Shown piece after piece: positions 1,486 to 44,056 of a stretch of 64,000 nucleotides of DNA. The notes beneath the pieces are model-generated. The model was not told the DNA's origin. It saw nothing but the letters and a program-made list of their open reading frames with translations, and searched no databases. Positions within the stretch are counted from its first letter, which is position 1; every line of letters begins with the position of its first letter. Source of the stretch: an uncultured Candidatus Saccharibacteria bacterium (GTDB lineage Bacteria > Patescibacteriota > Minisyncoccia > Phycocordibacterales > WO2-35-19); assembly GCA_964630525.1 (NCBI GenBank), contig CAZVUY010000002.1:99693-163692 (forward strand), given 5' to 3'. The position numbers and the translations under genes were made by a program.

Positions 1486-1622
1486 ATTGATCGTGATTTA
1501 CTAATAAACACAAAGCCCGCCGCTAGGAAGGTCCGAAGACCTCTATGGAGTTTCCCCCATAACACGATCAATGCCCTAACGACGGGTTCTCTATCATTGA
1601 TCGTGATTTACTTGGACCATGC
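1486..1622. repeat. pair of perfect 17-nt direct repeats ATTGATCGTGATTTACT (1486-1502 and 1606-1622) flanking a GC-richer ~100-nt spacer
   Basis: Read directly from the sequence; lies in the 5' part of the 1456 ORF, which is therefore probably not coding here. Confidence 0.8.
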
Positions 1623-1701
1623 CGTTTCCGGTTTAGGTCCTGCCCTCGCGGGCTATTCGGTTGTTATTGCAATAATACCAAGTTTGGAGGAATATAGGAA
1701 T

Positions 1702-3124: not shown

Positions 3125-4855
3125 ATGGAAACTTCTACAAAAACAAGCAACAATGATAAAATAATTGAAATGAATAACAAAGCAGTAATTTATTGCAGAG
3201 TATCATCCAAAGAGCAGGAAGAAACCGGCTATTCATTGCCGGCACAGGAAAAACTACTTACTGAATATGCTCAAAAAAGAGGTTTGGATATAGTAAAGAT
3301 ATTTTCTATATCTGAATCAGCAAGTGGTGCAAAGCAGCGGCAAGTATTCTATGAAATGATGAGCTTTTTGGGGAATAAAAACATCCCTCATCTGTTATGC
3401 GAAAAAGTAGATCGCATTACTCGTAATATGAAAGATGCGGTAGTAATAAATGATTGGATTGAAGATGATGCAGAAAGACAAATCCACTTCATAAAACAGA
3501 ATCTTGTAATTCATAAGAATGCAAAGTCAGACGAGAAGTTTCGCTGGGATATTGAAATTGTCCTAGCCAAAAAATATATCGCAAACCTATCGGAGGAAGT
3601 GAAAAAAGGACAAGCAGAAAAAATTAGGCAGGGATGGCTACCAACAAGACCACCCATCGGGTATAGGACTGTCGGAGAAAAAGGCCATAAAACTCATGTG
3701 ATTGATGAAAATACAGCTCCACTCATAAGGAAAGCTTTTGAGTTGTATGCCACTGGCAATTATTCTATGAAGCGACTAGCTGATGAGTTGTATAAAGACG
3801 GCCTCCGAACGAAATTAGGAAAGAAGCCGGCCAAAAGCAGGATTGAAGATATTCTCAAAGAGCCATTTTATTATGGTGCGATCAGGTGGAATGATGTGCT
3901 TCACAACAATGGCGCCCATAAGCCGATTATAACCAAAGAGTTGTTTGATAAGGTTACAGAGGTCCGGACAAGGGGTGATACTCCAAAATATCAGAGGCAT
4001 CAGTTCACCTTTCGTAAACTTCTAAGATGCAAGGAGTGTGATGGCACGATCACGGCCGAGATTCAAAAAGGAATTATTTACTATCACTGCACTCATTACA
4101 AAGGTTGCACTCAAAATAAATACACCCCAGAGAAGCAAATAGAGGAAAAATTATTAGGTGTATTTAAGTTTTTTGAGAATATAACTCCGGGAGAGGCAGA
4201 GCGTATCAAGGATAAAATAAAGGCCAATCACGCTGTTGAGATTGAATACAAGGAAAACACCATAAAGTCCCTCAACGAGCGGTATAGCCACTTACAGAGG
4301 CGCGTAGACCAGTTATATGACGATAGGTTGGACCATATAATCACCAACGAGCATTGGGAGAGAAAGCAGAAGGAGATAAACGACGAGCAGGCAGTAATCA
4401 GAGATCAGTTGGCCCAACTCAAAAGTGAGGAAACGAAATATTTTGAAATCTGGCTCAATATCTTGGACCTTGCTAGGAGGGCAAGAGAGATATACCAAAA
4501 GAGAAGCCCGGAACAGCGTAGGACCCTTATAAAGTATATTTTTCAAACCCTTATGCTAAAAGATGGAGAAACCGAATCCACCCTAAAGCCGACTATTGAA
4601 AAAATAGCCAAAAGAGTGCAACAGAAGCTAGATCAAGAAAAGATTTTCGAACAGACACAAAAAACCGCTAAAAGCACTGCTTCTAGCGACTCTTTGCGTT
4701 CTTCAAAACCAAATAATCCGTTAGAACTTTCGGAGGGTCAAAATAATTTTCGAACCTCAAAAAAGCTCTCTGTTAAGGCACGACACAGTGATTTGCACAC
4801 TGCTTCACGCCCTCTGCTCCGGGAGCAGGGATCGAACCTGCGACCAATCGCTTAA
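3125..4855 (+). CDS. large serine recombinase (resolvase/invertase catalytic domain, recombinase domain, zinc ribbon, coiled coil)
   Basis: N-terminal VIYCRVSSKEQ with catalytic Ser; recombinase domain; zinc ribbon CKECDG...HC; long coiled-coil tail; the ORF ends inside tRNA-Asn. Confidence 0.85.
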   Translation: METSTKTSNNDKIIEMNNKAVIYCRVSSKEQEETGYSLPAQEKLLTEYAQKRGLDIVKIFSISESASGAKQRQVFYEMMSFLGNKNIPHLLCEKVDRITRNMKDAVVINDWIEDDAERQIHFIKQNLVIHKNAKSDEKFRWDIEIVLAKKYIANLSEEVKKGQAEKIRQGWLPTRPPIGYRTVGEKGHKTHVIDENTAPLIRKAFELYATGNYSMKRLADELYKDGLRTKLGKKPAKSRIEDILKEPFYYGAIRWNDVLHNNGAHKPIITKELFDKVTEVRTRGDTPKYQRHQFTFRKLLRCKECDGTITAEIQKGIIYYHCTHYKGCTQNKYTPEKQIEEKLLGVFKFFENITPGEAERIKDKIKANHAVEIEYKENTIKSLNERYSHLQRRVDQLYDDRLDHIITNEHWERKQKEINDEQAVIRDQLAQLKSEETKYFEIWLNILDLARRAREIYQKRSPEQRRTLIKYIFQTLMLKDGETESTLKPTIEKIAKRVQQKLDQEKIFEQTQKTAKSTASSDSLRSSKPNNPLELSEGQNNFRTSKKLSVKARHSDLHTASRPLLREQGSNLRPIA

Positions 4856-4888
4856 CAGGCGACTGCTCTACCGCTGAGCTATCCCGGA
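4817..4888 (-). tRNA. tRNA-Asn (anticodon GTT)
   Basis: Manually folded cloverleaf: perfect 7-bp acceptor TCCGGGA/TCCCGGA, D-arm GCTC-AGCGGTA-GAGC, anticodon loop CTGTTAA, T-loop TTCGATC. Confidence 0.85.
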
Positions 4889-5094
4889 ATATTTAAATTG
4901 TAACAAACATTTTTCCGTGATATCTATCCTTGAGTAGTCGCCTGGACAGGCGCCCTCCTTACAGGAGCTGTCTACTCATTGGATTTTTTGCTTTGCGAAG
5001 CTTGCAAAAATTCTCAATGAGTCTTGCAGTTGGGTCCCATCCCAACTTCACTCCACCGCTGAGCTATCCCGGAATATTTAAATTTGTAACAAAG
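4871..5094. repeat. ~38-bp direct repeat (4871-4908 and 5056-5094, one mismatch) duplicating the tRNA-Asn 5' end plus upstream flank; the second copy is a degenerate tRNA fragment
   Basis: CCGCTGAGCTATCCCGGAATATTTAAAT(T)GTAACAAA appears twice about 185 bp apart. Confidence 0.8.
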
Positions 5095-31602: not shown

Positions 31603-31629
31603 GCCGTGTCGAGCTTCGCTCGACACGGC
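31603..31629. terminator. 12-bp-stem hairpin GCCGTGTCGAGC-TTC-GCTCGACACGGC
   Basis: Immediately after the VirD4-like stop; U-tract is on the minus-strand side. Confidence 0.4.
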
Positions 31630-31920
31630 GCATCTAATCGTTGAGAGGGCAGATGTCCTCATGTGCCTCCCGCTGGGCTTCCGCAGCTCCAGAGAGACGC
31701 ATAAGGATTTTTATCCGGATTCTTTTTTTTCTAGAATCCGCCCCCTTTTTTCCAAGTCGCGATAGCTCTTCTTTGTCTCCGCAAGCTAGCGCGACGTCGA
31801 CAGATTCATAACCTGTCATCTTCATCATACTGTCTAATATTATATCACGTATAAAAAATAAAGCAAGGAGCTGTGGATAGCAAAAGGGCGCCTCCTTGCG
31901 GGGCGCCCTAGATTCGACTA

Positions 31921-32424
31921 CTACGGTTGGAGTTCTTTGATGCTCTCCAGCATTTTGTTCCAGTCTGGCTCGGGCGGGTCAGATGCTCTTAGAGCCAAAT
32001 ACCCATAAATCTGGTTTTGGTCAGTATTTTCAAAATGACCAAAACGGTACGCAAGGTCTAGCAGTGTGGCCAACCTTTCCTTGTATTGGTCAGCCAATTC
32101 TTGGGCCGAAGTTGCTTCCGCGATCTTTTTTGGATCGCGGTCGGCGTCAAGACCACGCAAGGTAAACCTTGCGATCGTCTCATTCACTACAATTTCATTC
32201 GCAGTGTTCCTTATCTTTTTCCAAATCACGAGCTCGCGATTTTTGCGAGCTGATGAATCGAGGTCTTTAATTTCCACTGGTTGTCCAAATTCCATCCGGA
32301 ACCGGATCTTTAAAATCTCGTTTTCTTGGGTGTGTGCCAGGTACATCCCAAACCCAAATGCCGAAGATAGCACAACCACCAATCCCACAACCCGCACAAT
32401 CGGGTCTTTTAACAGTTTTTTCAT
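31921..32424 (-). CDS. membrane-anchored hypothetical protein
   Basis: N-terminal TM; hairpin GGGCGCC...GGCGCCC downstream at 31873-31900. Confidence 0.4.
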   Translation of the reverse strand: MKKLLKDPIVRVVGLVVVLSSAFGFGMYLAHTQENEILKIRFRMEFGQPVEIKDLDSSARKNRELVIWKKIRNTANEIVVNETIARFTLRGLDADRDPKKIAEATSAQELADQYKERLATLLDLAYRFGHFENTDQNQIYGYLALRASDPPEPDWNKMLESIKELQP

Positions 32425-32514
32425 GCGAACCTCCTTTTTGTTTATAACATCTAAAATAGTTTTTGTAAAATTTGGATAGAAGCTGATTTTGGTGTATATT
32501 TAAAGTGTGTTTGG

Positions 32515-32590
32515 GGGCCATTAGCTCATTTGGTAGAGCGCGCCCATGGCATGGGCGAGGTGAGCGGTTCGATCCCGCTATGGTCCACCA
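32515..32590 (+). tRNA. tRNA-Ala (anticodon GGC) with encoded CCA
   Basis: Manually folded: acceptor GGGCCAT/ATGGTCC with G3:U70, anticodon loop ATGGCAT, T-loop TTCGATC, discriminator A. Confidence 0.85.
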
Positions 32591-32807
32591 TACGAAACTT
32601 GTTCGGAATTACTTTTGCTTGTGGATTATTTTTCAAAAGTGCTTTCAGTGAATCAACATGAAAATGGTCGGCGTGTTCGTGCGTGATAAGTACAAAATCT
32701 ATATTTTTTACTTCGCTCTGTTGTGTTGAATAAGTCCCAGGGTCGGTCAAAATTCTGACTCCTTTTTCTTCTATCAATAAGCAACAATGTCCAAATTTTG
32801 TGATTTT
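32591..32807 (-). pseudogene. truncated MBL-fold metallo-hydrolase: N-terminal ~70 aa only; frame reads into the tRNA-Ala antisense
   Basis: MKITKFGHCCLLIEEKG...ITHEHADHFH (HxHxDH) then no further MBL motifs before abutting the tRNA 3' end. Confidence 0.5.
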
Positions 32808-32814
32808 CATAAAA

Positions 32815-33315
32815 TTATTTTTGACTCTCAATAAGTTTAGAAGCAAGTTTTTTAAGTTCTTCGGAGTCGGCCATTGGTCCACTCCCCGAAGAAATCCAAC
32901 CTTCGTATTTATCAAACCAAAATTCTTTTCCGCTTAAAACTTGCTTCCAAACACCTTGCTTTAGGTTTTCTGTTCCGTGAAGCGGAACAAGTTTAATATG
33001 TGCGTGGTCTATACCTGTTCCTTCCATCATCAATCCAACTCGTCCAACATCGTCAAAATAATTTTCTAAAATATTCGCCACTTTTTTGGAGGCAATTATG
33101 AATCTTTGCAAAACATCATCAGGCATTTTCAAGACATCGCTTCCAAAATGTTGCTTTGGAATTACGCAAGTAAAACCCTTGGTGTTCGGGTCAATGGCAA
33201 GCCAAGCCATAAATTCCTCATCTTCCCAGAACTTTCCAGCCGTTTGCATATTGCCCGCGACTATCTCGCAGAAAATACATTTGTTGTCTTTGGTTGTTGC
33301 TTCGTAGTGAGTCAT
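32815..33315 (-). CDS. HIT-family (histidine triad-like) protein
   Basis: IFCEIVAG N-terminus and GIDHAHIKLVP histidine motif (third His replaced by Lys). Confidence 0.75.
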   Translation of the reverse strand: MTHYEATTKDNKCIFCEIVAGNMQTAGKFWEDEEFMAWLAIDPNTKGFTCVIPKQHFGSDVLKMPDDVLQRFIIASKKVANILENYFDDVGRVGLMMEGTGIDHAHIKLVPLHGTENLKQGVWKQVLSGKEFWFDKYEGWISSGSGPMADSEELKKLASKLIESQK

Positions 33316-33317
33316 AA

Positions 33318-34037
33318 CTAGATAATTTTTCGCCAGCGTTTGAACGCCTTTATATCAGTTGCGTTGAGGTCAAACCATTCGCCATTCATTCGTTTTGCGT
33401 CAAATCGCTTATGCCAATATGCCTCAACGCCGCTGGGGTCGTCAGTCTTTATTTCGTGAATCAAGTCAAGATTTTCTGGTAATTGGATTCTAAGCTCATT
33501 TCCTCTCCGAACAGTGTCAAAAGTTTTTCCAATCTTGTAATACTTGCCATGCCTGAAAAGATAAACTGCACCTTCAATTTCTCCAGAGTCACCCTTTTCA
33601 GTTTCAGTTTTTGAGTTTTGTTCAATGATAGCAGTGCAGATTTTTACAATATCTGCGTATCCTTTCTGTTCGGCATATTCCAAAACCTTATTGACTCTCC
33701 CATTTTTATTTCCAAGACGATCAAAACTTCCTGGGCTTGGAAAGTCGGAATCTCTATGTCTTTTCCCAATTAAATCCGCATTGGTCGGGAATCTGCCAAT
33801 TTCCCGCATTAAGACAACTGCGCTTTCCAACAAAAACTCCATATCGTGTGCAGATTGCAAAGTATTCGGCTCAAAACCCGCTTCACGCTGTGCTTCACCA
33901 AAACTTGGCCAAAATTTCAAAATTTCGTATTCATTGATTCCTGTTTCTTTTCCGAATCTTCCACGACCAAGCGGAACGCCACCATTTTCTTTTGCGGTTT
34001 CCTGGATTGCCTTGATTATATCTTGTTTTGTTGCCAT
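33318..34037 (-). CDS. protein with C-terminal T5orf172/MUG113 (GIY-YIG superfamily) domain
   Basis: GAVYLFRHGKYYKIGKT...RRGNEL...LIHEIKTDDP...AYWHKRF...NGEWFDL. Confidence 0.65.
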   Translation of the reverse strand: MATKQDIIKAIQETAKENGGVPLGRGRFGKETGINEYEILKFWPSFGEAQREAGFEPNTLQSAHDMEFLLESAVVLMREIGRFPTNADLIGKRHRDSDFPSPGSFDRLGNKNGRVNKVLEYAEQKGYADIVKICTAIIEQNSKTETEKGDSGEIEGAVYLFRHGKYYKIGKTFDTVRRGNELRIQLPENLDLIHEIKTDDPSGVEAYWHKRFDAKRMNGEWFDLNATDIKAFKRWRKII

Positions 34038-34038
34038 A

Positions 34039-34245
34039 TCATTTCAAAAGCTCATCAACGGAAACATCAAGCGCTTTGGCGAGCTTTTCTAAAACTGCCA
34101 GCGTAACATTGACCTTTCCTCCCTCAATCGCACTCATGTAGCTTCTGTCCATATCTATTGCTCGACAAATGTCGCCCTGCGACATTTTACGGCGAAGCCG
34201 TATGCGCTTGATGTTTTCTCCAAGTTTTTTGGAAATTTGAGCCAT
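34039..34245 (-). CDS. Cro/C1-type (XRE) HTH regulator
   Basis: LGENIKRIRLRRKMSQGDICRAIDMDRSYMSAIEGGKVNVTLAVLEKLAKAL. Confidence 0.8.
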   Translation of the reverse strand: MAQISKKLGENIKRIRLRRKMSQGDICRAIDMDRSYMSAIEGGKVNVTLAVLEKLAKALDVSVDELLK

Positions 34246-34519
34246 ATTTATATTATCACTTTATCAACTATTGCGCCATGCCTCAATATGGAGGTATAAT
34301 CCCATATATGGATTCTCTTTTTGTAGCCGCCGATTTTTTCAAAAAAGAAAGCCGAAGCCCGCGCGGATTCCTCCCCAGACCCCTCCTCCGCGCGGGCGAG
34401 TCCATCGCCCCGCCTCCTTTGCCCCAGAAAAATAGTGGCGGGGCACATCAGGAGTTCCGTTCAAAGAAAGTTCGAGCAAATGCTAGAATAACACCACATG
34501 TTTAATAATAATTAAAAAT

Positions 34520-35047
34520 ATGTCTACCATTTTAAGTTTATATGCAGTAGAAAAGGGGAAGGTTGAAAAAATTATTAAAGATAAAGATGTTAGCGTATTG
34601 GATCAGATGCCTGACGCTGAATCCAAATCTTACCTAAATAAAATTTTTGATCATGAATACGATCGTGATCCAGATACTTACGAACATCCGGAAGGAGGTC
34701 AGTATATCTTTGCTTTTCATGAATTGTGCAAATTGTCAGCTACAAAATCTACGAGTGTTGAGTGTAGTGTAGATGACGAGCAGACTCCCGAATTTTGGCA
34801 TTTCGTTTGGAGTGATTGGGAACCAGAAGATTTTTTGGAATTACCACTTTCACCAGATGGTTTACCGGCGGTGACTTACAAAGGTTCAACCATGTTGCAA
34901 AAATATATAGACCAACTGAAGGGGGTGGAAGCAAATGGTGGTTATGATTCAAGATTTCTTAAGATCGATGATTTGAGAGAAATTATCAGTTTTCTTCAGG
35001 ATTCTACATCAGCGGGTACGGATGTGTTTGTTTTTATATCAGAATAG
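34520..35047 (+). CDS. acidic hypothetical protein; an immunity-protein-like role is speculative
   Basis: 175-aa acidic ORF, divergent from the XRE gene across a GC-rich palindromic spacer. Confidence 0.4.
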   Translation: MSTILSLYAVEKGKVEKIIKDKDVSVLDQMPDAESKSYLNKIFDHEYDRDPDTYEHPEGGQYIFAFHELCKLSATKSTSVECSVDDEQTPEFWHFVWSDWEPEDFLELPLSPDGLPAVTYKGSTMLQKYIDQLKGVEANGGYDSRFLKIDDLREIISFLQDSTSAGTDVFVFISE

Positions 35048-35170
35048 ATTGAGTTTCTCTGTAAAACTAAAAAATTTTGGTGTTGTCGATGGACACGGTA
35101 TGAGGTTGCTTTTTGCTGATTTTAAACTAATAATTAAATTGGCAGTACTTTGATTTTTTAGGAGGAGTAG

Positions 35171-35758
35171 ATGGGTAAACTGTTGCAAATGGATATTAAC
35201 CCGATGCGTCTCTCGGAACAACTTTTTAACCAAGCTCTCGAATGGGAGCCAGTCAACGTCGAACGCGCTGAAAATCTCTATCAAAGAGCAATCAGAGTTT
35301 ACCCCTACAACGTAGGGGCTCTACTCAATTTGGGCACGATTTTTTTTCGCCGTGACGATTTTAACAGGGCGGAGCAACTCTATCGTCAAACTATCGTAAT
35401 TAATCCTAATTACGCTTTAGCTCATTTTAATCTAGCCAATCTTTTGGATAAACGTTGGCGGAAATGGGAGGCGCTAGAGCATTATCGCACGGCAGTTGAG
35501 ATTGACCCAAACTATGCGGATGCACACTACAACCTTGCTAGCACTCTTCACGACGTGGGGCGCCCAATGGAGGCAGCGAAACATTGGCTTGCTTTCTTGC
35601 GCCTCGAACCTTACGGTGATTTTGCCGAAACTGCCAAGAAAAACTTTTCGGCTATTGCTGACAAGCTTACTGTCCAAAAAAACACAAATCCGGAGGTGCC
35701 TCATGATGGAAAGTTTGGCGCGGTGGTTGGAGAAAATGATGGTGGTGATCTCGTGTGA
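35171..35758 (+). CDS. TPR-repeat protein
   Basis: Several 34-aa TPR-like units (e.g. AEQLYRQTIVINPNYALAHFNLANLL; ALEHYRTAVEIDPNYADAHYNLASTL). Confidence 0.7.
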   Translation: MGKLLQMDINPMRLSEQLFNQALEWEPVNVERAENLYQRAIRVYPYNVGALLNLGTIFFRRDDFNRAEQLYRQTIVINPNYALAHFNLANLLDKRWRKWEALEHYRTAVEIDPNYADAHYNLASTLHDVGRPMEAAKHWLAFLRLEPYGDFAETAKKNFSAIADKLTVQKNTNPEVPHDGKFGAVVGENDGGDLV

Positions 35759-36125
35759 ATCTTTCTGGTGGGGTTATGAAAAAACTTGTGGCCAGGGTGA
35801 CTACCCACAACTTTGGGCAGAAATGGTAGGCAAGGAAATCATCCGTAGCCTTACCAAGATGGTTCATTGTGGGGAGCTCACTGATAAGTTTGTGGTTACC
35901 GGTTTTTTGGTTGGTCGGTTGTATCGGGTCAAAGTTTTTTGTGGTGGAAAGGAGGTGATGAGGGTTGATATATCTCATCCAAACCAGTTGTTGCCGATGA
36001 TGGTGAGAGACGGCCAAGTCCTAGGCCAACCTTTTCATTATTGCACAAACCCAAAACAACTCCTGGAATCATCCGAGGAGTTGCTGACTTATATAATTTG
36101 GCCACATACGAAAGTGGCCACTTGA
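35704..36125 (+). CDS. hypothetical protein (start uncertain; overlaps the TPR gene 3' end)
   Basis: ORF 35496-36125 with the most plausible Met at 35704. Confidence 0.25.
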
Positions 36126-36173
36126 GACCGTCAATCAATGGTTGGTTGGCGGTCTTTGTTTTTTGGCTATTAA

Positions 36174-37244
36174 TTAGTTTCTGGTCAATTCATCTATTTT
36201 AGAAGCCAAGATAAAATCGTTTTCGGAGAGGCCACCGATCGCATGAGTGGAAATCTTTACATCGACGTTTTTAAAGTCGTGAAGCTTGATATCGGGGTGG
36301 TGCCCTTCTTTTTGGGCCACCATCGCTACTTCATTCATGAAATTGACAGCTTCGCGAAAGTCGGTAAACTCGTAAGTTTTTTCTATTTCTTTGTCTTCAA
36401 CCAATGTCCATTGGCTGACTTTTTCAAGTAAACGTTCTGATTCTTCGTGTGATAGGGGAGAAGTGTCTCCTTCGCATGGTACGCAGTGTTTTTGAGAAAG
36501 GGCGGTGAGCGGACCTTCGCCGTTCCCCTTATTGTTTGAGTTGTTTACATCTTCTGATTTCTCGTCGTATTTTAAACCTATCCTGACAGGAGCATTTTTT
36601 ATCGCCTCAAGAACTTTTTGTTCGTCATCTGTTATGAGGTAAAGTTCCAAATCTTTTTCTTCGATCATGGAATTTGAAATCAGAATTTCTCTGAAAAAAT
36701 TCTCAAGAGGTTTCCAGTAACTTTCTCCAAAAAGGATGATGGGTACTCTTGGTATTTTATTTGTTTGAACTAGTGTCAAAATTTCCAAAAACTCATCTAA
36801 TGTGCCAAACCCTCCAGGAAAGAAAATATAAGCTTCCGCAGAAAAAGAAAGACAAACTTTGCGACTAAAAAAATAATGAAAACCCATTTTATGGGTCAGA
36901 TATTCGCTTGTTACTTGTTCGTGGGGGAGTTCGATCGTGAGGCCGACCGAATTGCCACCGGCTTCGTAAGCGCCGCGACTCGCCGCTCTCATGATACCTG
37001 GCCCACCGCCAGTGACGATCGAATAATGTAGCTCTTCGACGATGCGGCGAGCCAAAGTCCTGGCCTTCTCATAATATTCGTCACTTTCTTTGGTTCTGGC
37101 TGAGCCAAAAAAAGTAACCGAGCGGGGATAATTTTTTATAAATTCGAAACCATCGGCAAATTCTTTGGAGATAAGAGCAACCCTTTTTTGGGCAGCTTGG
37201 CTTAGCTCGACTAAGGTCAGAGGTTTGTTGTCCATGCTGATCAT
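36174..37244 (-). CDS. fusion of a LOG-family (TIGR00730, lysine-decarboxylase-like) domain with a C-terminal pterin-4a-carbinolamine dehydratase (PCD/DCoH) domain
   Basis: LOG motifs GGGPGIMRA and PGGFGTLDE in the N-terminal ~230 aa; C-terminal ~100 aa with E-G-H-H-P-D PCD signature. Confidence 0.7.
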   Translation of the reverse strand: MISMDNKPLTLVELSQAAQKRVALISKEFADGFEFIKNYPRSVTFFGSARTKESDEYYEKARTLARRIVEELHYSIVTGGGPGIMRAASRGAYEAGGNSVGLTIELPHEQVTSEYLTHKMGFHYFFSRKVCLSFSAEAYIFFPGGFGTLDEFLEILTLVQTNKIPRVPIILFGESYWKPLENFFREILISNSMIEEKDLELYLITDDEQKVLEAIKNAPVRIGLKYDEKSEDVNNSNNKGNGEGPLTALSQKHCVPCEGDTSPLSHEESERLLEKVSQWTLVEDKEIEKTYEFTDFREAVNFMNEVAMVAQKEGHHPDIKLHDFKNVDVKISTHAIGGLSENDFILASKIDELTRN

Positions 37245-37373
37245 TTTAATTGTTTTAAATAATAAGGCAATATGATAAAATAGACTCCGAGGCTAAAAGT
37301 TATAAGTTTAACCTGTCTTCGCTGAAGCTTCCGGTCTAGTGCCAAGGCTGACGGCGAGGCAAGAAATTAAAAA

Positions 37374-37880
37374 ATGAGGAAATTATCTAAGAATGAGTGG
37401 GTAGCGACAGTGCTTGCGATCGCTTTCGTTGCTTATACTTTGTTTGGAGGCAGTATTATGGGATTATTCAAAAAAAATTCAATGAATGAAAACTCGGCAG
37501 CCGCTATCAATACTACAGCTAATAGCAGCAATTCCTCGGTTATTATAAATGACATTACTGTTGGTAATGGTCAGGAAGTTAAAAATGGTGATCTGGTGTC
37601 AGTACATTACATTCTCTCGCTCTCAGATGGTACTGTTTTGCAGAATTCCAAAGATGTTGGTGCACCATTTCAGTTTACTCTCGGTGCTGGTGAAGTGATC
37701 CCTGGGTGGGAGCAAGGTTTTGCAGGTATCAAGGTTGGTGGTGTCCGTACCATTGTTATCCCACCAGAGCTTGCTTATGGCGCCAACCAGGCTGGACCAA
37801 TCCCACCAAATTCAACTCTAATCTTTACTATTGAAGTTGTAGATACTACTCCTGCTCCAGCTGCTGCAACCACTCAATAA
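37374..37880 (+). CDS. FKBP-type peptidyl-prolyl isomerase with signal or anchor
   Basis: VSVHY...DGTVLQNS...FQFTLGAGEVIPGWEQG...LIFTIEVV. Confidence 0.85.
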   Translation: MRKLSKNEWVATVLAIAFVAYTLFGGSIMGLFKKNSMNENSAAAINTTANSSNSSVIINDITVGNGQEVKNGDLVSVHYILSLSDGTVLQNSKDVGAPFQFTLGAGEVIPGWEQGFAGIKVGGVRTIVIPPELAYGANQAGPIPPNSTLIFTIEVVDTTPAPAAATTQ

Positions 37881-37883
37881 TCA

Positions 37884-39080
37884 ATGTTTCGGATTGAAAA
37901 AGAGATACCTAATTTTCTTGGCCGAGCCGGTGTTCTAGAGACTTCTCATGGGTCTATCAAGACACCGGCTTTTGTGACGGTAGGTACCAAGGGTACGGTC
38001 AAGTCTTTGACTCCTGAACAAGTGAAAGATCTTGGGGCTCAGGTGGTGTTGGCTAATACTTATCACCTATATCTGGAGCCGGGCGATGAAATGGTGAAAA
38101 AGATGGGTGGTTTGGGTCAAATGATGCAGTGGTCGGGTCCCACCATGACTGACTCGGGCGGCTTCCAAGCTTTTTCTTTGGGTGTGGCTTATGAGTATGG
38201 TATTGGTAAGTTCATTTCGAGTGAAGCGCCTCAAGAGCAGGTGGTGGAAGAGGCTTATGATACTACTCGCAAGAACAAAAAAGCCAAAATCACAGAAGAT
38301 GGGGTCGAGTTTCAGTCGGTGATCGATGGTAGTACTCACTTTTTTTCACCGGAAAAATCTATCCAGATTCAGAAAAATATCGGGGCTGACATAATATTTG
38401 CTTTCGATGAATGTACTTCGCCTCACGCCGGCTATCAGTATCTCAAAGAGTCAATGGAACGCACCCACCGCTGGGCGGAGAGGTGTTTGGGGGAACACAA
38501 AAAGAGCCCACCCTCCCAATCCCTTTTCGGTATCGTCCAGGGTGGTCGGTATCAGGATTTGCGTGAAGAAAGTGCCAAAGTGGTAAGTGCGATGGGTTTC
38601 GATGGCTTTGGGATCGGCGGTTCATTTGTCAAAGAAGATATGCATGATGCGGTGAAATGGGTCAACACTGTTTTGCCCAAAGAGAAACCAAGACATTTGC
38701 TCGGGGTGGGTGAGCCAGCTGATCTTTTTGGAGCGGTGGAAAATGGTTGTGATCTTTTCGATTGTGTCGCCCCAACCAGGATCGCGCGCAACGGTACTCT
38801 CTACACTCATTTTGGCAAAATCAATATTTTGAATAGTAAATTCAAAAATGATCTAGTTCCCATAGATGAAGGGTGCGATTGCTACACCTGTCAAAAATAT
38901 TCTCGTGCTTACGTGGCTCACTTATTTCGAGCTAAAGAAATGTTGGGGGCCACTCTCGCCTCAATCCACAACCTACGTTTTATTGTGAGGATGGTTGATG
39001 CTATGCGTGAAGCTATTTTAAACGGCACTTTTTTTGAATACAAAAAAAATTTTCTTGATCGCTATCAACAAACAATATGA
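37884..39080 (+). CDS. tgt: queuine tRNA-ribosyltransferase
   Basis: DSGGFQ, DCVAPTR and zinc site CDCYTCQKYSRAYVAHL. Confidence 0.9.
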   Translation: MFRIEKEIPNFLGRAGVLETSHGSIKTPAFVTVGTKGTVKSLTPEQVKDLGAQVVLANTYHLYLEPGDEMVKKMGGLGQMMQWSGPTMTDSGGFQAFSLGVAYEYGIGKFISSEAPQEQVVEEAYDTTRKNKKAKITEDGVEFQSVIDGSTHFFSPEKSIQIQKNIGADIIFAFDECTSPHAGYQYLKESMERTHRWAERCLGEHKKSPPSQSLFGIVQGGRYQDLREESAKVVSAMGFDGFGIGGSFVKEDMHDAVKWVNTVLPKEKPRHLLGVGEPADLFGAVENGCDLFDCVAPTRIARNGTLYTHFGKINILNSKFKNDLVPIDEGCDCYTCQKYSRAYVAHLFRAKEMLGATLASIHNLRFIVRMVDAMREAILNGTFFEYKKNFLDRYQQTI

Positions 39081-39092
39081 TATATTATCCGC

Positions 39093-41228
39093 ATGAAATT
39101 TGAGCTGAAGGCCAAATTTGATCCTGCCGGAGATCAGCCAAAAGCTATTGAAAAATTGGTGGCTGGTGTGCGAAAGGGCAAAGATCATCAAACACTGCTC
39201 GGGGTGACAGGGAGCGGCAAGACTTTTACTATTGCCAATGTGATAGAGAAGATCAATAAGCCGACTTTGGTCATTGCCCACAACAAAACCTTGGCCGCCC
39301 AACTCACTCAGGAATATCGAGAATTTTTCCCCAACAATGCTGTTCATTATTTTGTTTCTTATTACGATTTCTACCAGCCGGAAGCTTATATGCCGGTCAC
39401 CGATACTTATATAGAAAAAGAGGCAATGATCAATGAGGAGATCGAGCGGTTGCGCCACGCTTCGACCGAAGCTTTGCTCACCCGAAAAGATGTGATCATC
39501 GTGGCCTCTGTTTCTTGTATTTATGGCTTAGGTTCTCCGGAAGAATATGAAAAAGTGAATCTCAAAATCGAAGCGGAAAGCAAGATAAACCGAGCCGAGT
39601 TCTTACGAAAACTGATTTATATCCACTATGAGCGGACCAACGCTGACCTGACGCCCGGTACTTTTCGGGCGATCGGCAATATTATTGAGATCATGCCGGT
39701 CTCTGAAAAACAGGTTTATCGGCTTGAAGTGGTGGGCGACCAGATCAAATCTATCCAACAAATAGATGCTATTTCCAGAAGTATTTTGGCTGAACCGAAA
39801 GCTTTTTATCTTTTTCCGGCCAAGCATTTCATTACCGCCGAAGAAGATGTTAAAAGAGCGCTAAAATCGATCAAGGCTGAGTTGGCAGCACAACTTAAAA
39901 AATTTGAAAAAGAAGGCAAGCTTTTGGAGGCTGATCGACTAAAACGTCGCACTGGCTACGACCTCTCTATGATCAAAGAGGTTGGCTATTGCAACGGTAT
40001 CGAAAATTATTCCAGGCATTTTGATGGTCGCGAGGCGGGCGAACCACCTCACTCTCTGCTCTCTTATTTCCCAAAAGACAAAGATGGTAAGCCGGATTTT
40101 CTCACAGTGATCGATGAATCGCATGTCACCGTCTCTCAAATTGGTGGTATGTACGCCGGCGACGCCTCCAGAAAAGAAACCTTGATCGAGCATGGTTTTC
40201 GCTTGCCAAGCGCCAAAGACAATCGACCACTCAAGTTCCCTGAATTTACCGAACGGATTGGGCAGGTTATCTACACTTCAGCTACTCCGGGCAAATATGA
40301 ACTTGATAAAAGCGGGAAAGAAGGGGTGGCAGAACAAATCATTCGTCCGACAGGACTCTTGGATCCGGAAGTTTTCGTAAGACCGATCAGTCAGACCTCA
40401 CCCCCGACCCCTCTCCTTGGTAAGGAGAGGGGAGAAGTGGTTTTTTCTGATTCCCCCCTTAAGGTAAGGGGGGCTAGAGGGGATATGAATAAAAAAGCAG
40501 GTTACCCAGGCCAGATTCTCGATTTCATCAATGAGGCGGTGAAAGAAGTAAAGAAAGGCAATCGGGTTATTGCTACCACTCTTACCAAAAAGATGGCTGA
40601 GGATCTGTCTGAGTACTTAAAGGAAAAAAAGATTCGAGCTGAATATTTGCATAGTGATATCAAAACTATTGAAAGAATAGAAATTTTGACCAGGCTAAGA
40701 AAAGGGGAGTTTGATGTGTTGGTTGGGGTCAATCTCTTGCGAGAAGGTTTGGACCTGCCAGAAGTTTCTTTTATCGGCATTCTCGATGCAGACAAAGAGG
40801 GTTTTTTGCGAAGCGAAACTTCTTTGATTCAGACGATCGGTCGGGCAGCCCGCAACGTCGAGGGGCGAGTCATCCTTTATGCCGATCAGCTGACTGGTTC
40901 GATGGAGCGCGCAATCTCAGAAACAAATCGTCGGCGTGCTTTGCAGATCGCTTACAACAAAGCGCACGGTATCACGCCGCAGACCATCAAGAAAGAAATA
41001 AAAGATATCACCGAACAAATGCAACGAGAGCACAAAAAGGCGGTGGGTACGCTCCTTGCGATAGATTTGAAGAAGGGGGGCAAGGACGGACTCTCTGCTA
41101 AACAGGTGGCCAAATTGATCAAGACCAAAGAAAAACAAATGAACGCCGCCGTCAAAATCCTCGATTTCGAATCCGCCGCCATCCTCCGTGATGAGATTAA
41201 GGAATTGGAGAAAATGATCTCGGGCTAG
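39093..41228 (+). CDS. uvrB: excinuclease ABC subunit B with a ~39-aa in-frame insertion
   Basis: GVTGSGKTFTIAN Walker A, beta-hairpin region, C-terminal UvrC-interaction helix; insertion between VRP and QILDF relative to the canonical UvrB core. Confidence 0.9.
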   Translation: MKFELKAKFDPAGDQPKAIEKLVAGVRKGKDHQTLLGVTGSGKTFTIANVIEKINKPTLVIAHNKTLAAQLTQEYREFFPNNAVHYFVSYYDFYQPEAYMPVTDTYIEKEAMINEEIERLRHASTEALLTRKDVIIVASVSCIYGLGSPEEYEKVNLKIEAESKINRAEFLRKLIYIHYERTNADLTPGTFRAIGNIIEIMPVSEKQVYRLEVVGDQIKSIQQIDAISRSILAEPKAFYLFPAKHFITAEEDVKRALKSIKAELAAQLKKFEKEGKLLEADRLKRRTGYDLSMIKEVGYCNGIENYSRHFDGREAGEPPHSLLSYFPKDKDGKPDFLTVIDESHVTVSQIGGMYAGDASRKETLIEHGFRLPSAKDNRPLKFPEFTERIGQVIYTSATPGKYELDKSGKEGVAEQIIRPTGLLDPEVFVRPISQTSPPTPLLGKERGEVVFSDSPLKVRGARGDMNKKAGYPGQILDFINEAVKEVKKGNRVIATTLTKKMAEDLSEYLKEKKIRAEYLHSDIKTIERIEILTRLRKGEFDVLVGVNLLREGLDLPEVSFIGILDADKEGFLRSETSLIQTIGRAARNVEGRVILYADQLTGSMERAISETNRRRALQIAYNKAHGITPQTIKKEIKDITEQMQREHKKAVGTLLAIDLKKGGKDGLSAKQVAKLIKTKEKQMNAAVKILDFESAAILRDEIKELEKMISG
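40408..40473. repeat. two GC-rich perfect hairpins inside the uvrB CDS: CCCCTCTCC-TTGGTAA-GGAGAGGGG (40408-40432) and CCCCCCTTA-AGG-TAAGGGGGG (40453-40473)
   Basis: Read directly from the sequence; they encode the uvrB insertion segment. Confidence 0.8.
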
Positions 41229-41291
41229 ATCAACTTGACATCTCTTGCTATATATGTATATTAATGCTGTAGTTCATTTTATGGAGGTTAT

Positions 41292-41717
41292 ATGATTTTG
41301 CAGCTGCTCACTGAGCTGAACCAGGATCTTCCAGTGGATGATCCGCCACAACAGAAGGTCCAACCGGGTGACAAGGTCCTGGGAGTGGTCGGCATACAGG
41401 CTCAACGCCTGTTTTCGATCATTCAACGCCATGCCAATCTGGTCGACGCGAAGGCCGCCCAGCTCAAGGATGGAAGTATTTCCATCAATGATATGAGGCG
41501 TATTGTGAGGGAGATCAAGGATGATCTGCGCCGCCTGACGTTGCTGGGGCAGGTCTTTTGGACCGAGATCCGGGAAGAGGTGGGTGTTCCGGATGGCGAG
41601 CTATTGATCTGTGAGGACTGGAAAGTGGTTGCATCAGAGGTCGTCGACGAGGACTGCGGCGATCCCAACTGTCCGGCCCATGGCCACAAGCACACAAGTG
41701 AATCTGCTGCCGACTAA
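41292..41717 (+). CDS. hypothetical protein (GC-rich island gene 1) with C-terminal CGDPNCPAHGH Cys/His cluster
   Basis: 141-aa ORF with coding-like composition; first gene of the GC-rich island. Confidence 0.4.
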   Translation: MILQLLTELNQDLPVDDPPQQKVQPGDKVLGVVGIQAQRLFSIIQRHANLVDAKAAQLKDGSISINDMRRIVREIKDDLRRLTLLGQVFWTEIREEVGVPDGELLICEDWKVVASEVVDEDCGDPNCPAHGHKHTSESAAD

Positions 41718-41726
41718 TCGGGCTCA

Positions 41727-41758
41727 GGCCCCCATCGCTTTGCGATGGGGGCCTTTTT
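41727..41758 (+). terminator. strong rho-independent terminator
   Basis: GGCCCCCATCGC-TT-TGCGATGGGGGCC followed by TTTTT. Confidence 0.7.
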
Positions 41759-41871
41759 AAAGAAAGTGTTACTAACGCTTGAAAAATGTACACAGACAGT
41801 TGACTTTTTATATAACGAATGATATTATTCGGTTAGAATTTTGTCCTTTTAAATTAAAGGAGATAGAGACA

Positions 41872-43353
41872 ATGAGATTTCTTTATGCTACTGATTTGCA
41901 TGGAAATCGGGATGCTATTGAGCAAGCTTTCCAAGTGGCTCACGAAGAGCGGGTTGGGGCTATTGTATTTGGTGGCGACCTGACTCCCAAGTCAGTGGCA
42001 ATCAAGTTGGCCCACTATCCTGATCCTTCTAAAGAAGAAGTTGAGTTTGAGGGAGAAATTCCTCTGCTTGGCGGCGAAGTATTACCAACTCACCTACTGG
42101 AAGACGAGCAGCACATCCACACTTTTACAAAGAGTCTGGAGCGTGTGAAAAAACTCAACCAACAGTTGGGTTCGGATGTCCTTGCAGAACAACTTGTTCG
42201 TAAGGGATCAATCCTTCACGAGCTTAAAAACCAATACTACGAGATTGAGTCTATGCTCTCAGAGCAGATCCTTCTCGACAAATTGTATGCTTTCTTTCGC
42301 GATGCTGGCACTAACAGTCGAACACGACTTGAACTCTCCGATGAGGAGGTTGAGATCGTCAAAGACTGTGTGGCCGAGTGGCTTGCAGAATACGAGAAAG
42401 GACTAATGGATAGTCAAAAGTCAGCTTTTTTAGCTAAATGTAAACAAACATTTGGTTACGAGGGTGATGACTTTTTGGCCGTCGCACCGTCGCGACACAT
42501 CTTGGAATGTATCCTCTACGAACTTTCGAGTGGAAATCTGTCAGATGTTTTTGTTCCGATTGAAAATTTGCTTAAGAGTAAGAAGGGGTACATCGCGGGG
42601 CGACTTCTAAAGTTTTTCCACGACGAGCAGAATAGAATTTTCCGATCCGGTGCCTACAAAGGCATGATCGAGGAGTCTTGGATTGGGGCCTTGCCCTATT
42701 ACTCAACTATCGCTCAGCTCAAACGAGACGTAGAGAAAACGGAATTCTTAGGAGCGGAGCAAGCAAAATTCCTTCGGGAGTTTTTCTTCCCGCTTGTTCG
42801 GGGATGGAATGCGACACACCCAAACCAGCCCGTGTACGCCATGCTTGGCAACGACGACATCATCGAAAATGTCTCGTTGCTAGATGAAGCGGAACGGGAA
42901 GGTCTACTCTGTCATATGCATGGCGACAAAGTCAGCATGTTCGACGGTGATCTTAATATCGTCGGCTACAGCTTTGTTGAAACTCTGCCTCCCAAGGTTG
43001 AGTACCGTGCATGGGTCAAGAATGCTAGTGACATCCTATGCGATCTGAAGTCTCTCTGGTTTAGCCTGAGACACAGGAAAGCAATTTGGGTGATCCACAA
43101 TCCGCCGTTCGGCTACGTCGACCAGATCGTCGGCGGCCACGCTGGAAGCCAAGGGGTGCTAGAGTTTTTGGAGCAATTCAAACCCTCCTTAGCGCTTTTC
43201 GGACACATTCACGAAGCACCGCGACTCGCAGGAGATTTTACGGCTAAACTTGGAGAAACGCTCTGCGTCAATCCAGGAGGAGAACATGAAAATGGGCTCC
43301 AAGCTGTTATTATTAATTCAGAAACTTTGGAAGTGGAGAGGAGGTGGCTATGA
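41872..43353 (+). CDS. calcineurin-like metallophosphoesterase with a long internal insertion (GC-rich island gene 2)
   Basis: RBS AAGGAG 8 nt upstream; N-terminal LYATDLHGN...VFGGDL and C-terminal NPPFGY...LFGHIHEA phosphoesterase motifs. Confidence 0.65.
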   Translation: MRFLYATDLHGNRDAIEQAFQVAHEERVGAIVFGGDLTPKSVAIKLAHYPDPSKEEVEFEGEIPLLGGEVLPTHLLEDEQHIHTFTKSLERVKKLNQQLGSDVLAEQLVRKGSILHELKNQYYEIESMLSEQILLDKLYAFFRDAGTNSRTRLELSDEEVEIVKDCVAEWLAEYEKGLMDSQKSAFLAKCKQTFGYEGDDFLAVAPSRHILECILYELSSGNLSDVFVPIENLLKSKKGYIAGRLLKFFHDEQNRIFRSGAYKGMIEESWIGALPYYSTIAQLKRDVEKTEFLGAEQAKFLREFFFPLVRGWNATHPNQPVYAMLGNDDIIENVSLLDEAEREGLLCHMHGDKVSMFDGDLNIVGYSFVETLPPKVEYRAWVKNASDILCDLKSLWFSLRHRKAIWVIHNPPFGYVDQIVGGHAGSQGVLEFLEQFKPSLALFGHIHEAPRLAGDFTAKLGETLCVNPGGEHENGLQAVIINSETLEVERRWL

Positions 43354-43949
43354 TGCAGATGATGAGATTTAATCTAGCGCCCCGTTTCGAGTTGCGTCAG
43401 GAGCAGAGGATAGCGCACTTGCAGATTCTTTGCGCGCCGAAACCGCCTAATGCAGTTTGTGGTATTGAGGGTATGAAAGTTGCTGACAGCGTACTCAAGG
43501 AAATGGGAGTTGTTGGTATGTTGATTGGTGGCTTGGCTAAAGAACTTTGGTCTGGCGTATCGGACGAAGAACGTTTGTTGAAACATAAGGATGTTGATGT
43601 GCTGGTGCTTTCGCACGACTGCACATTTCATCCGAAAAAATGGGCGAGCGGTATCGATTGGTGGGTAAGCCATGATCCACAACAGCGCCCAACGAATGGC
43701 AATCCGGTTGGATTGCTGTGGCGGGTGCGGTTGGATTTGCATGCGCGAAATATCCCAAAAGGGTTGTATTTGTGCCCGCTGCAACTTCTTCGTGAATCGG
43801 TTGTGATGGAACGACGCTTTCTCAAGGGTCGTAAGGTGGTTGGCGGACGTTTTAAGGACAATCCCGCTTCTCTGTATCCGTCTTTGGACGAGATGCAGCT
43901 TCGATGGGACTGGGCAGGTTTAGAAGACCCTGTTGCGGACTATTGCTGA
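43350..43949 (+). CDS. hypothetical protein, possibly minimal nucleotidyltransferase-fold (GC-rich island gene 3)
   Basis: RBS AGGAGG before ATG 43350; loose IGG...x19...DVDV match to the pol-beta NTase motif. Confidence 0.3.
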   Translation: MMQMMRFNLAPRFELRQEQRIAHLQILCAPKPPNAVCGIEGMKVADSVLKEMGVVGMLIGGLAKELWSGVSDEERLLKHKDVDVLVLSHDCTFHPKKWASGIDWWVSHDPQQRPTNGNPVGLLWRVRLDLHARNIPKGLYLCPLQLLRESVVMERRFLKGRKVVGGRFKDNPASLYPSLDEMQLRWDWAGLEDPVADYC

Positions 43950-43962
43950 CAACGTTTGATAG

Positions 43963-43993
43963 GTGGCTATGCCTTCGGCTGGCCACCTTTTTG
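43963..43993 (+). terminator. terminator at the end of the GC-rich island
   Basis: GGTGGC...GCCACC hairpin followed by TTTTTG. Confidence 0.6.
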
Positions 43994-44056
43994 TTATCGC
44001 AGGAACGTATTTTATATATTTGACTCTTTTGGGGGGATTTGGTAGCCTTATTCGGT

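Follow-up and report, generated by a model that had tools for sequence, protein, structure and literature searches.

The window analysed here is a stretch of 64,000 nucleotides on contig CAZVUY010000002.1 of an uncultured Candidatus Saccharibacteria bacterium, and the element in question is a small islet at the 3' end of a tRNA-Ala(GGC) gene. Between this tRNA and a gene for an acidic protein, four minus-strand genes were packed with gaps of 1-4 nt. In the direction of transcription they encoded an XRE regulator, a T5orf172/MUG113 protein, a HIT-family protein and a fragment of a metallo-beta-lactamase (MBL)-fold protein. A structured repeat closed the islet on the side of the acidic-protein gene (Table 1). 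All features described in a first-pass annotation of the letters were recovered with ARAGORN and Pfam, namely the tRNA-Ala, the MBL fragment, the HIT protein in its HxHxK variant, T5orf172, XRE and the acidic open reading frame (ORF) of 175 aa. The tRNA-Ala was absent from the Rfam gathering scan of the whole window and was scored in the local scan, which looks like a filter miss.

Table 1. Features of the tRNA-Ala(GGC) locus, with positions in the window.
Feature	Position	Strand	Evidence or detail
tRNA-Ala(GGC), insertion target	32515-32590	+	ARAGORN; Rfam 55.1 bits (local scan)
Inserted islet, 1909 bp	32589-34497	no strand	Comparison with L182 and L181
MBL-fold pseudogene fragment	32598-32810	-	ATG at 32810; codons 1-71 of a 211-aa gene
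HIT-family protein, 166 aa	32815-33315	-	Pfam HIT 29.8 bits (cut-off 21.5)
T5orf172/MUG113 (GIY-YIG superfamily) predicted nuclease, 239 aa, intact	33318-34037	-	Pfam
XRE/Cro-type regulator, 68 aa	34039-34245	-	HTH_3, E 1e-12
Leader/promoter region of the XRE operon	34246-34311	-	Near-perfect palindrome TCCATATATGGGA
Structured terminal repeat	34323-34497	+	Starts GTAGCCGCCGA, ends ..AACACCAC
Acidic 175-aa protein, outside the islet	34520-35047	+	DUF7691 24 bits, below cut-off 27

The sequence 32589-34497 is a true accessory insertion at the tRNA-Ala 3' end, as the first-pass annotation had suspected. Its ends were set at these positions because one related locus represents the empty site and a second one shows alignment breaks. 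In the empty site, L182 (about 70-75% DNA identity), the tRNA-Ala(GGC) lies only 43 nt from the acidic-protein gene, and the gene order is tRNA-Glu, VirD4-like gene, tRNA-Ala(GGC), acidic-protein gene, LOG-PCD, FKBP and TGT. Positions 4015-4573 of L182 aligned to window positions 34494-35050. The closest relative, L181 (92-98% DNA identity), aligned to window positions 31623-32588 and then to 34498-41221. Homology between the window and its relatives stopped at 32588 (..GGTCCAC), within the last bases of the tRNA-Ala, and the encoded CCA of the tRNA was completed by the first bases of the insert. The left joint in the window is ..GGTCCAC followed by CATACG.., the right joint is ..AACACCAC followed by ATGTTTAATAA.., and the empty-site joint is ..GGGTCCAC followed by AGGTTTAATAA.., the sequence across it being ..GGTCCAC and then A(G/T)GTTTAATAA. 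CCAC was present at both joints (32585-32588 and 34494-34497).

At the same site, L181 carried a different cassette of 2.57 kb with genes for a peptidoglycan (PG)-binding protein, a PAS protein, an extracytoplasmic function (ECF) sigma factor and DUF5670. The end of this alternative cassette (L181 3520-3540, TATAATACACCGTA) resembled the last ~15 nt of the terminal repeat in the window (TAGAATAACACCACA), which hints that cassette and islet may share one docking end. Three more distant syntenic relatives, L103, L104 and L106, were obtained by a metagenome scan with TGT as the query (TGT 66-68% identical); in these, the VirD4-like gene and LOG are only 0.4-1.4 kb apart. L103 showed tRNA-Ala(GGC), a remnant of an XRE-gene 3' end (GATGAGCTTTTGAAATAGA) and then a nucleotidyltransferase-like gene, and the site has therefore been occupied before. 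The last ~18 nt of an XRE gene (GATGAGCTTTTGAAATAG) remained before the nucleotidyltransferase-like gene at L103 7201-7251. The same XRE-gene end was present before T5orf172 at L002 9968-10000, a locus lacking the XRE gene. The XRE/nuclease junction may be a recombination point.

The domain search detected no tyrosine or serine recombinase or integrase domain in any ORF of 32589-34497 and no transposase domain in the islet ORFs, in agreement with the earlier description of a block lacking an integrase. A direct repeat of the tRNA-Ala 3' end, which had been suggested as a check, was not found. No second copy was present in the 64 kb at up to 3 mismatches in 25 nt, nor among the seed-10 repeats between 32.4 and 46 kb, and the islet joints share only the 4-nt CCAC. 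Base composition gave no signal, with a GC of 0.41 in the islet and about 0.43 in the flanks.

In the T5orf172/MUG113 protein, MUG113 was matched with 59.8 bits (cut-off 22.3) and T5orf172 with 30.3 bits (cut-off 20), at residues 157-235. The residues Y159, Y167, R178 and E220 were invariant across 27 sequences, and the window protein kept every invariant residue of the family. These four residues probably correspond to GIY-YIG catalytic roles. An AlphaFold2 (AF2) model with a pLDDT of 81.7 comprised two helical N-terminal repeats with weak helix-turn-helix (HTH)-like matches and a C-terminal beta-beta-alpha domain. The homing-endonuclease-associated repeat PF18780 was precomputed on the N-terminal half of many homologues. 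A nuclease-type domain and a separate DNA-binding-type domain thus seem to be combined, as in free-standing homing endonuclease genes. The homologues formed a very conserved family of ~240 aa with more than 1500 protein clusters, the best 120 being 58-93% identical over nearly the full length. In ICP1- and T5-like phages, proteins of the T5orf172 group have an established role as homing endonucleases (Barth et al. 2023, PMC10448857).

The XRE protein was 100% identical to that of locus L086, and the nuclease of L086 was 93% identical to the window protein. At the DNA level, the identity between both loci was 91% and confined to 34311-33324, comprising leader, XRE and T5orf172. It ended at the T5orf172 stop codon, after which L086 had a NERD gene in place of HIT. 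This alignment identifies XRE plus T5orf172 as the shared, putatively mobile unit. The palindrome (TCCCATATATGGGA) was located in the conserved leader upstream of XRE and was a perfect 14-mer in L086. Overall, the regulator was present in only about 12 of 85 family loci.

The two remaining genes of the islet had a different history. The MBL fragment, whose frame enters the tRNA, covered only positions 1-62 of the 160 profile positions of Lactamase_B_3; the HxHxDH motif was kept and the remaining domain was missing. It was identical in 63 of 70 positions to residues 2-71 of a 211-aa MBL in L097, and the identity ended at K71 (window 32598). A filler of 7 nt, TACGAAA on the plus strand, separated the fragment from the tRNA end. 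The gene is truly truncated, as the full-length 211-aa homologue follows HIT by 4 nt in L097. Truncation had been postulated in the first-pass annotation and is borne out; its interpretation as the footprint of an integration into a host MBL gene fails, as the fragment belongs to the inserted DNA. The Pfam match of the HIT protein spanned residues 26-88 only, and in its triad region, DHAHIK, a Lys takes the place of the third His (H-A-H-I-K, HxHxK variant). It was 75-92% identical to a very common Patescibacterial protein of ~166 aa. The loci L097 and L098 (GCA_027447105 and GCA_027423395) were organised as tRNA-Ala(UGC), HIT, 4 nt, 211-aa MBL and a convergent tRNA-Ile. Between window and L097, HIT was 84% and the MBL fragment 90% identical, compared with merely 47-59% for SecY and methionine aminopeptidase (MAP). 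The HIT-MBL pair is regarded as horizontally mobile because it is far more alike than SecY and MAP of the same genomes. Elsewhere in Patescibacteria the pair occurred with no T5orf172, and it is an independent, highly conserved Patescibacterial gene pair. In the window, HIT and the MBL fragment apparently fill the place immediately behind the nuclease gene, where the cargo is variable. HIT genes were also observed just downstream of, and co-oriented with, tRNA-Ser (L095 5803-6504) and tRNA-Leu (L100 5690-6498), and likewise 3' of tRNA-Ala(UGC) (L097 4789-5395), with far better conservation than the housekeeping genes of the same genomes. HIT itself may be a tRNA-flank cassette.

In a collection of species-representative genomes with one genome per species, 530 stretches encoded relatives of the T5orf172 protein. 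Their hosts were Patescibacteria, Omnitrophota, Planctomycetota, Acidobacteriota, Proteobacteria, Actinomycetota and archaea of the DPANN group (Nanoarchaeota, Micrarchaeota). No relatives were present in INPHARED (50,697 phage genomes) or in IMG/VR, and PLSDB gave one weak partial match, so that a phage or plasmid origin was rejected. Locus statistics cover the best 80 of the 530 stretches, 45-64% identical to the window protein over the full length. A co-oriented tRNA was located at most 831 nt upstream in 17 of these 80 loci. This interval held 20 of the 39 tRNAs in these loci and makes up 6.5% of the searchable space (binomial p 3.7e-14). In L002, the gene was located 132 nt after the tmRNA gene. 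L008 showed a lone gene between perfect 163-nt direct repeats of a tRNA-Ser 3' part, giving a unit of 1022 bp. These repeats, at 3758-3920 and 4780-4942, comprise the 3' 69 nt of the tRNA-Ser and 94 nt of its flank; their length suggests either that a 1022-bp circle was inserted in Campbell fashion or that the event is very recent. A perfect 22-nt repeat (tRNA-Gly) surrounded the lone gene in L030, and a repeat with 21 of 25 matching positions (tRNA-Arg) was present in L004. In all three loci, the 0.9-1.0 kb between the repeats held the T5orf172 ORF only.

The gene beginning 1-10 nt after the nuclease stop codon varied. Accessory genes in this position encoded HD, LEM-3-type GIY-YIG, glycosyltransferase, methyltransferase, DUF2130, RhuM, DUF4145, and DUF3850 plus NUDIX proteins. 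In some loci the position was held by a housekeeping gene (ATP synthase gamma, rpS8 or pseudouridine synthase), and many T5orf172 copies were solo genes. The varying downstream gene therefore points to a selfish gene at a recombination boundary and not to a fixed multi-gene system; a fixed three-gene system of XRE, T5orf172 and a third gene was rejected. No Pfam family occurred in more than 2 of the 67 ORFs (at least 120 aa) downstream of the 19 tRNA- or tmRNA-linked copies. One Resolvase and one Relaxase were seen near these copies, and a transposase (rve/DUF772) in L002. No recurrent recombinase was found among the 25 best of the 62 Pfam families, and a single weak integrase match may be present among the others. 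Therefore, no recurrent integrase explains the tRNA pattern.

The GC-rich terminal repeat of ~180 nt folded better than shuffled sequence on the plus strand (z = -3.1). Its two GC hairpins (34357-34397 and 34407-34444) had C-rich loops that were conserved. Homologous elements of ~200 nt were located upstream of XRE in L012, L088, L091, L086, L006 and L011. A second, inverted copy was present just past the cargo gene in L012 (225 nt, 96%), L088 (194 nt, 96%), L091, L006 and L011. With inverted copies at both ends, the XRE-T5orf172-cargo units of these five loci are therefore bracketed by terminal inverted repeats (TIRs) of 190-225 nt. The window had one copy only, whose outer end coincides with the islet boundary. 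Between the window and L012 or L088, the hairpin stems showed compensatory changes and the loops ATTCCTCCCCAGACCCCTCCT and TCCTTTnCCCCAGAnAAAT were conserved; in other copies the C-rich loop was present as its G-rich complement. The outer terminus, ..AACACC(G/A)CCA, is similar to the 3' end of a tRNA. At the L002 locus, the terminus (..GCACCACCAT) repeated the end of the tmRNA (..GGTCCACCAT), and the element of L011 was located directly behind tRNA-Ala(CGC) and a stray tRNA 3' fragment. No target-site duplication was found at the ends of L012, L088 and L006. Short-read contigs of several samples ended inside the terminal-repeat element. In L012, a second perfect inverted repeat of 120 nt (48-167 and 1567-1686) was observed immediately outside the left terminal repeat and near the contig end, which may represent nested elements or an assembly artefact. 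The terminal repeat had no Rfam family, scans at the gathering threshold and at E<=1 giving tRNA only. A tmRNA or tRNA fragment was rejected despite the ..CACC(G/A)CCA end, as no T-arm/acceptor structure could be drawn and ARAGORN was silent. The hairpins were also discarded as a terminator, with no T-run behind them and a negative terminator scan.

These observations make it probable that 32589-34497 is a decayed, integrase-less copy of a homing-endonuclease-like mobile element at the tRNA-Ala(GGC) 3' end. The element's own parts would be the structured terminal repeat, the XRE regulator resembling a restriction-modification controller (C protein) and the T5orf172/MUG113 endonuclease with its two HTH-like repeats. 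The nuclease would recognise and cut DNA at or near the acceptor or 3' end of tRNA or tmRNA genes. With an element-bearing copy as the repair template, the element would then be installed, as for a free-standing homing endonuclease gene, and the terminus resembling a tRNA 3' end would mark the joint. Acting on the palindrome in front of its own gene, XRE would repress the operon and thereby limit the toxicity of the nuclease. For the window, two steps are proposed. A unit consisting of inverted repeat, XRE, T5orf172, HIT-MBL and inverted repeat would first have entered the CCAC at the 3' end of tRNA-Ala, in reverse orientation. Later, the repeat next to the tRNA would have been lost by deletion, together with the 3' two-thirds of the MBL gene. 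The outcome would be an immobile remnant with an intact regulator and nuclease, the HIT gene as cargo and one terminus. What endures of the first-pass reading is the accessory, integrase-less and decayed insertion, as seen from L182 and L181; the acidic protein as a member and the defence or toxin module do not.

A more far-reaching idea is that the T5orf172/MUG113 protein itself is the insertion enzyme of a new class of mobile elements. These would be units of 1-3 kb, with or without structured inverted repeats of 190-225 bp and XRE, in which a GIY-YIG-type nuclease replaces the integrase or transposase. Their entry points would be tRNA and tmRNA 3' ends, and their spread among phyla of bacteria and archaea would have taken place with no phage or plasmid vectors. 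This idea is speculative and at present rather doubtful.

Several observations weigh against a nuclease-driven element. Structural comparison of the AF2 model yielded no significant match to GIY-YIG, and the nuclease assignment therefore rests on the Pfam hidden Markov models and the conserved residues. About 60 of the 80 family members were not beside a tRNA. Direct repeats were seen in only about 8 loci, and those in L034, L075 and L082 were not tRNA-derived. Homing by double-strand-break repair alone does not predict flanking direct repeats of 22-163 nt. The window copy is oriented opposite to the 17 canonical tRNA-linked copies, has a single terminal repeat and shows a junction identity of 4 nt only. 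At the same site, the L181 cassette is devoid of T5orf172, and another agent may serve this hot spot; the single weak integrase match allowed for above would count in the same direction. Mobility driven by the putative nuclease is a proposal.

The chief competing explanation invokes an integrase that acts at a general tRNA hot spot. In that case, the islet would be the remnant of a classical tRNA-targeting island, moved by a tyrosine or serine integrase that was later deleted or acted in trans, and its genes would be cargo. The insertion exactly at a tRNA 3' end fits this explanation, the unrelated ECF sigma, PAS and PG-binding cassette in L181 keeps it alive, and the tRNA-derived direct repeats of L008, L030 and L004 are a classical attL/attR signature. 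Some copies also had a Resolvase or the rve/DUF772 transposase (L002) in their vicinity. However, the islet is free of integrase domains, the units of L008, L030 and L004 carry nothing besides the T5orf172 ORF between their repeats, and no recombinase family recurs among the 19 tRNA-linked loci. Integrase-borne cargo would also not explain the nuclease genes in housekeeping operons with gaps of 1-10 nt. The integrase explanation is therefore considered unlikely, and the homing-endonuclease-like element is preferred.

As a second rival, the islet could be a compact defence or toxin-antitoxin-like module, as the first-pass annotation had offered, in which a toxic T5orf172 nuclease is kept under control by XRE and works with an exchangeable effector (HIT here; NERD, HD, GIY-YIG or NUDIX elsewhere). 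XRE matched the restriction-modification Control_protein model best in PADLOC (E 6e-16) and also capH. The partners include nucleases and nucleotide hydrolases typical of defence islands (NERD, HD, LEM-3 GIY-YIG, DUF4145, RhuM and NUDIX), and the genes are tightly packed. However, PADLOC-DB 2.0 gave no system match: none of its system models matched T5orf172 significantly, the T5orf172, HIT and MBL-fragment matches were at E 0.0003-0.007 (insignificant for HIT and the MBL fragment), and XRE matched generic regulator models only. PHROGs and NCBIfam likewise gave no system-level defence match for the islet proteins. The third gene is not conserved and can be a housekeeping gene, many T5orf172 copies are solo, DNA identity with L086 does not extend beyond the T5orf172 stop codon, and HIT is conserved at 75-92% across Patescibacteria and pairs with MBL independently of T5orf172. 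The defence reading is weak and improbable. A vertically inherited block with a short but normal MBL gene, to which the inconspicuous GC and the missing long direct repeat could point, is refuted by L182 with its empty site and L181 with its replaced cassette, by the full-length MBL in L097 and by the similarity of HIT and the MBL fragment to L097, which far exceeds that of SecY and MAP, and can practically be dismissed.

The acidic protein, which the first-pass annotation had counted among the members of the block, is placed outside. Its gene is the direct neighbour of tRNA-Ala in L182, and in L181 it adjoins the alternative cassette. Because it is retained at the empty site and lies beyond the boundary 34497, it belongs to the core of the lineage, as does the TPR gene. 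The DUF7691 match was full-length yet under the Pfam gathering threshold. Only three homologues were present in 5.8 billion proteins, and the contigs of two of them were syntenic with the window (L181, L182). A promoter-like site was observed at 34460-34489 on the plus strand (TTCAAA, 18-nt spacer, TG, TAGAAT), in the outer terminal repeat and directed towards the acidic-protein gene; overall, sites in the promoter scan were no more numerous than in shuffled sequence. Upstream of the tRNA-Ala, a hypothetical protein of 167 aa (31921-32424, minus strand) was shared with L181 and absent from L182, L103, L104 and L106. Neither a relative in the JGI metagenome scan nor a family match was obtained for it. 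Further downstream, 36174-37244 (minus strand) encoded a 356-aa fusion of LOG (lysine-decarboxylase-like) and pterin-4a-carbinolamine dehydratase (PCD). The fusion was common to L181 and L182, and L103 and L106 had LOG alone (258-265 aa). About 2.8 kb between UvrB and the rpS8 ribosomal-protein cluster (41222-44016) were present in the window and missing from L181. This region, with ORFs of 141, 524 (calcineurin-like metallophosphoesterase) and 201 aa, appears to be a second strain-variable insertion. At 1528-1639 (minus strand), Rfam matched a LOOT RNA with 53.1 bits against a gathering score of 46.4.

Streamlined Patescibacteria contain few classical mobile elements, and tRNA-linked islands are usually attributed to integrases. 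T5orf172 domains, XRE regulators and tRNA-linked islands are known components; the interest lies in the family, of which the window copy is a decayed example. It is a very widely spread family of small elements that lodge at the 3' ends of tRNA and tmRNA genes and carry only a GIY-YIG-type nuclease and in some cases a regulator; no recombinase recurred in the loci examined. The searchable literature held no description of a chromosomal, phage-independent T5orf172 family with a preference for tRNA/tmRNA 3' flanks, single-gene direct-repeat units and long structured inverted repeats. Should insertion be driven by the nuclease, the reach of homing-endonuclease biology would extend beyond phages and introns and include the chromosomes of bacteria and archaea. 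Insertion of this kind would also help to account for the exchange of single-gene cassettes (HIT, NERD, HD, methyltransferase) in Patescibacteria and would provide a compact protein with a tRNA-gene-flank target. For annotation, tRNA-adjacent genes labelled 'GIY-YIG nuclease family protein' can mark islet boundaries missed by integrase-based island finders. Horizontal transfer of a GIY-YIG gene out of Patescibacteria has been noted (PMC12455944).

Among known systems, the phage T5orf172 homing endonucleases of ICP1 and T5-like phages (PMC10448857) are similar in the fusion of a T5orf172/MUG113 domain to repeated DNA-binding modules. They share the sporadic distribution, the insertion between conserved genes with tiny gaps and the position of the nuclease gene at the boundary of exchanged DNA, here the end of identity with L086. 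In contrast to them, the present subfamily is chromosomal in bacteria and archaea, with no member in INPHARED or IMG/VR. Its N-terminal modules are helical and of the HNH_repeat type (PF18780) instead of CapR/DUF723 zinc fingers. The family has a strong preference for tRNA/tmRNA 3' flanks with flanking direct repeats, and one branch has 190-225-bp terminal inverted repeats and an XRE partner. Islands of tyrosine integrases at tRNA and tmRNA genes are alike in the 3'-end insertion, the strain-specific occurrence and the alternative cassettes at one site, and some family members show direct repeats of the tRNA 3' part as these islands do. Unlike such islands, the islet and the single-gene units of 0.9-1.0 kb are devoid of an integrase, the junction identity in the window is 4 nt, and the elements are far smaller (1-3 kb). 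Restriction-modification C proteins with their nuclease genes resemble the XRE-T5orf172 pair in the small XRE/HTH gene immediately upstream, the predicted co-transcription, the palindromic box upstream and the Control_protein model as the best PADLOC match of XRE. They differ in that the present loci comprise neither a methyltransferase nor a restriction-enzyme fold, and in that the regulator is confined to the minority of loci given above. TIR transposons and the hairpin-bearing IS200/IS605, REP/RAYT and integron attC systems are set apart by their enzymes and, for the elements described here, by the lack of an observed target-site duplication: no DDE, HUH, serine or tyrosine enzyme was present, and the only enzyme is a GIY-YIG-type nuclease. 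They are alike in long structured ends with conserved loops and covarying stems, between which variable cargo is held.

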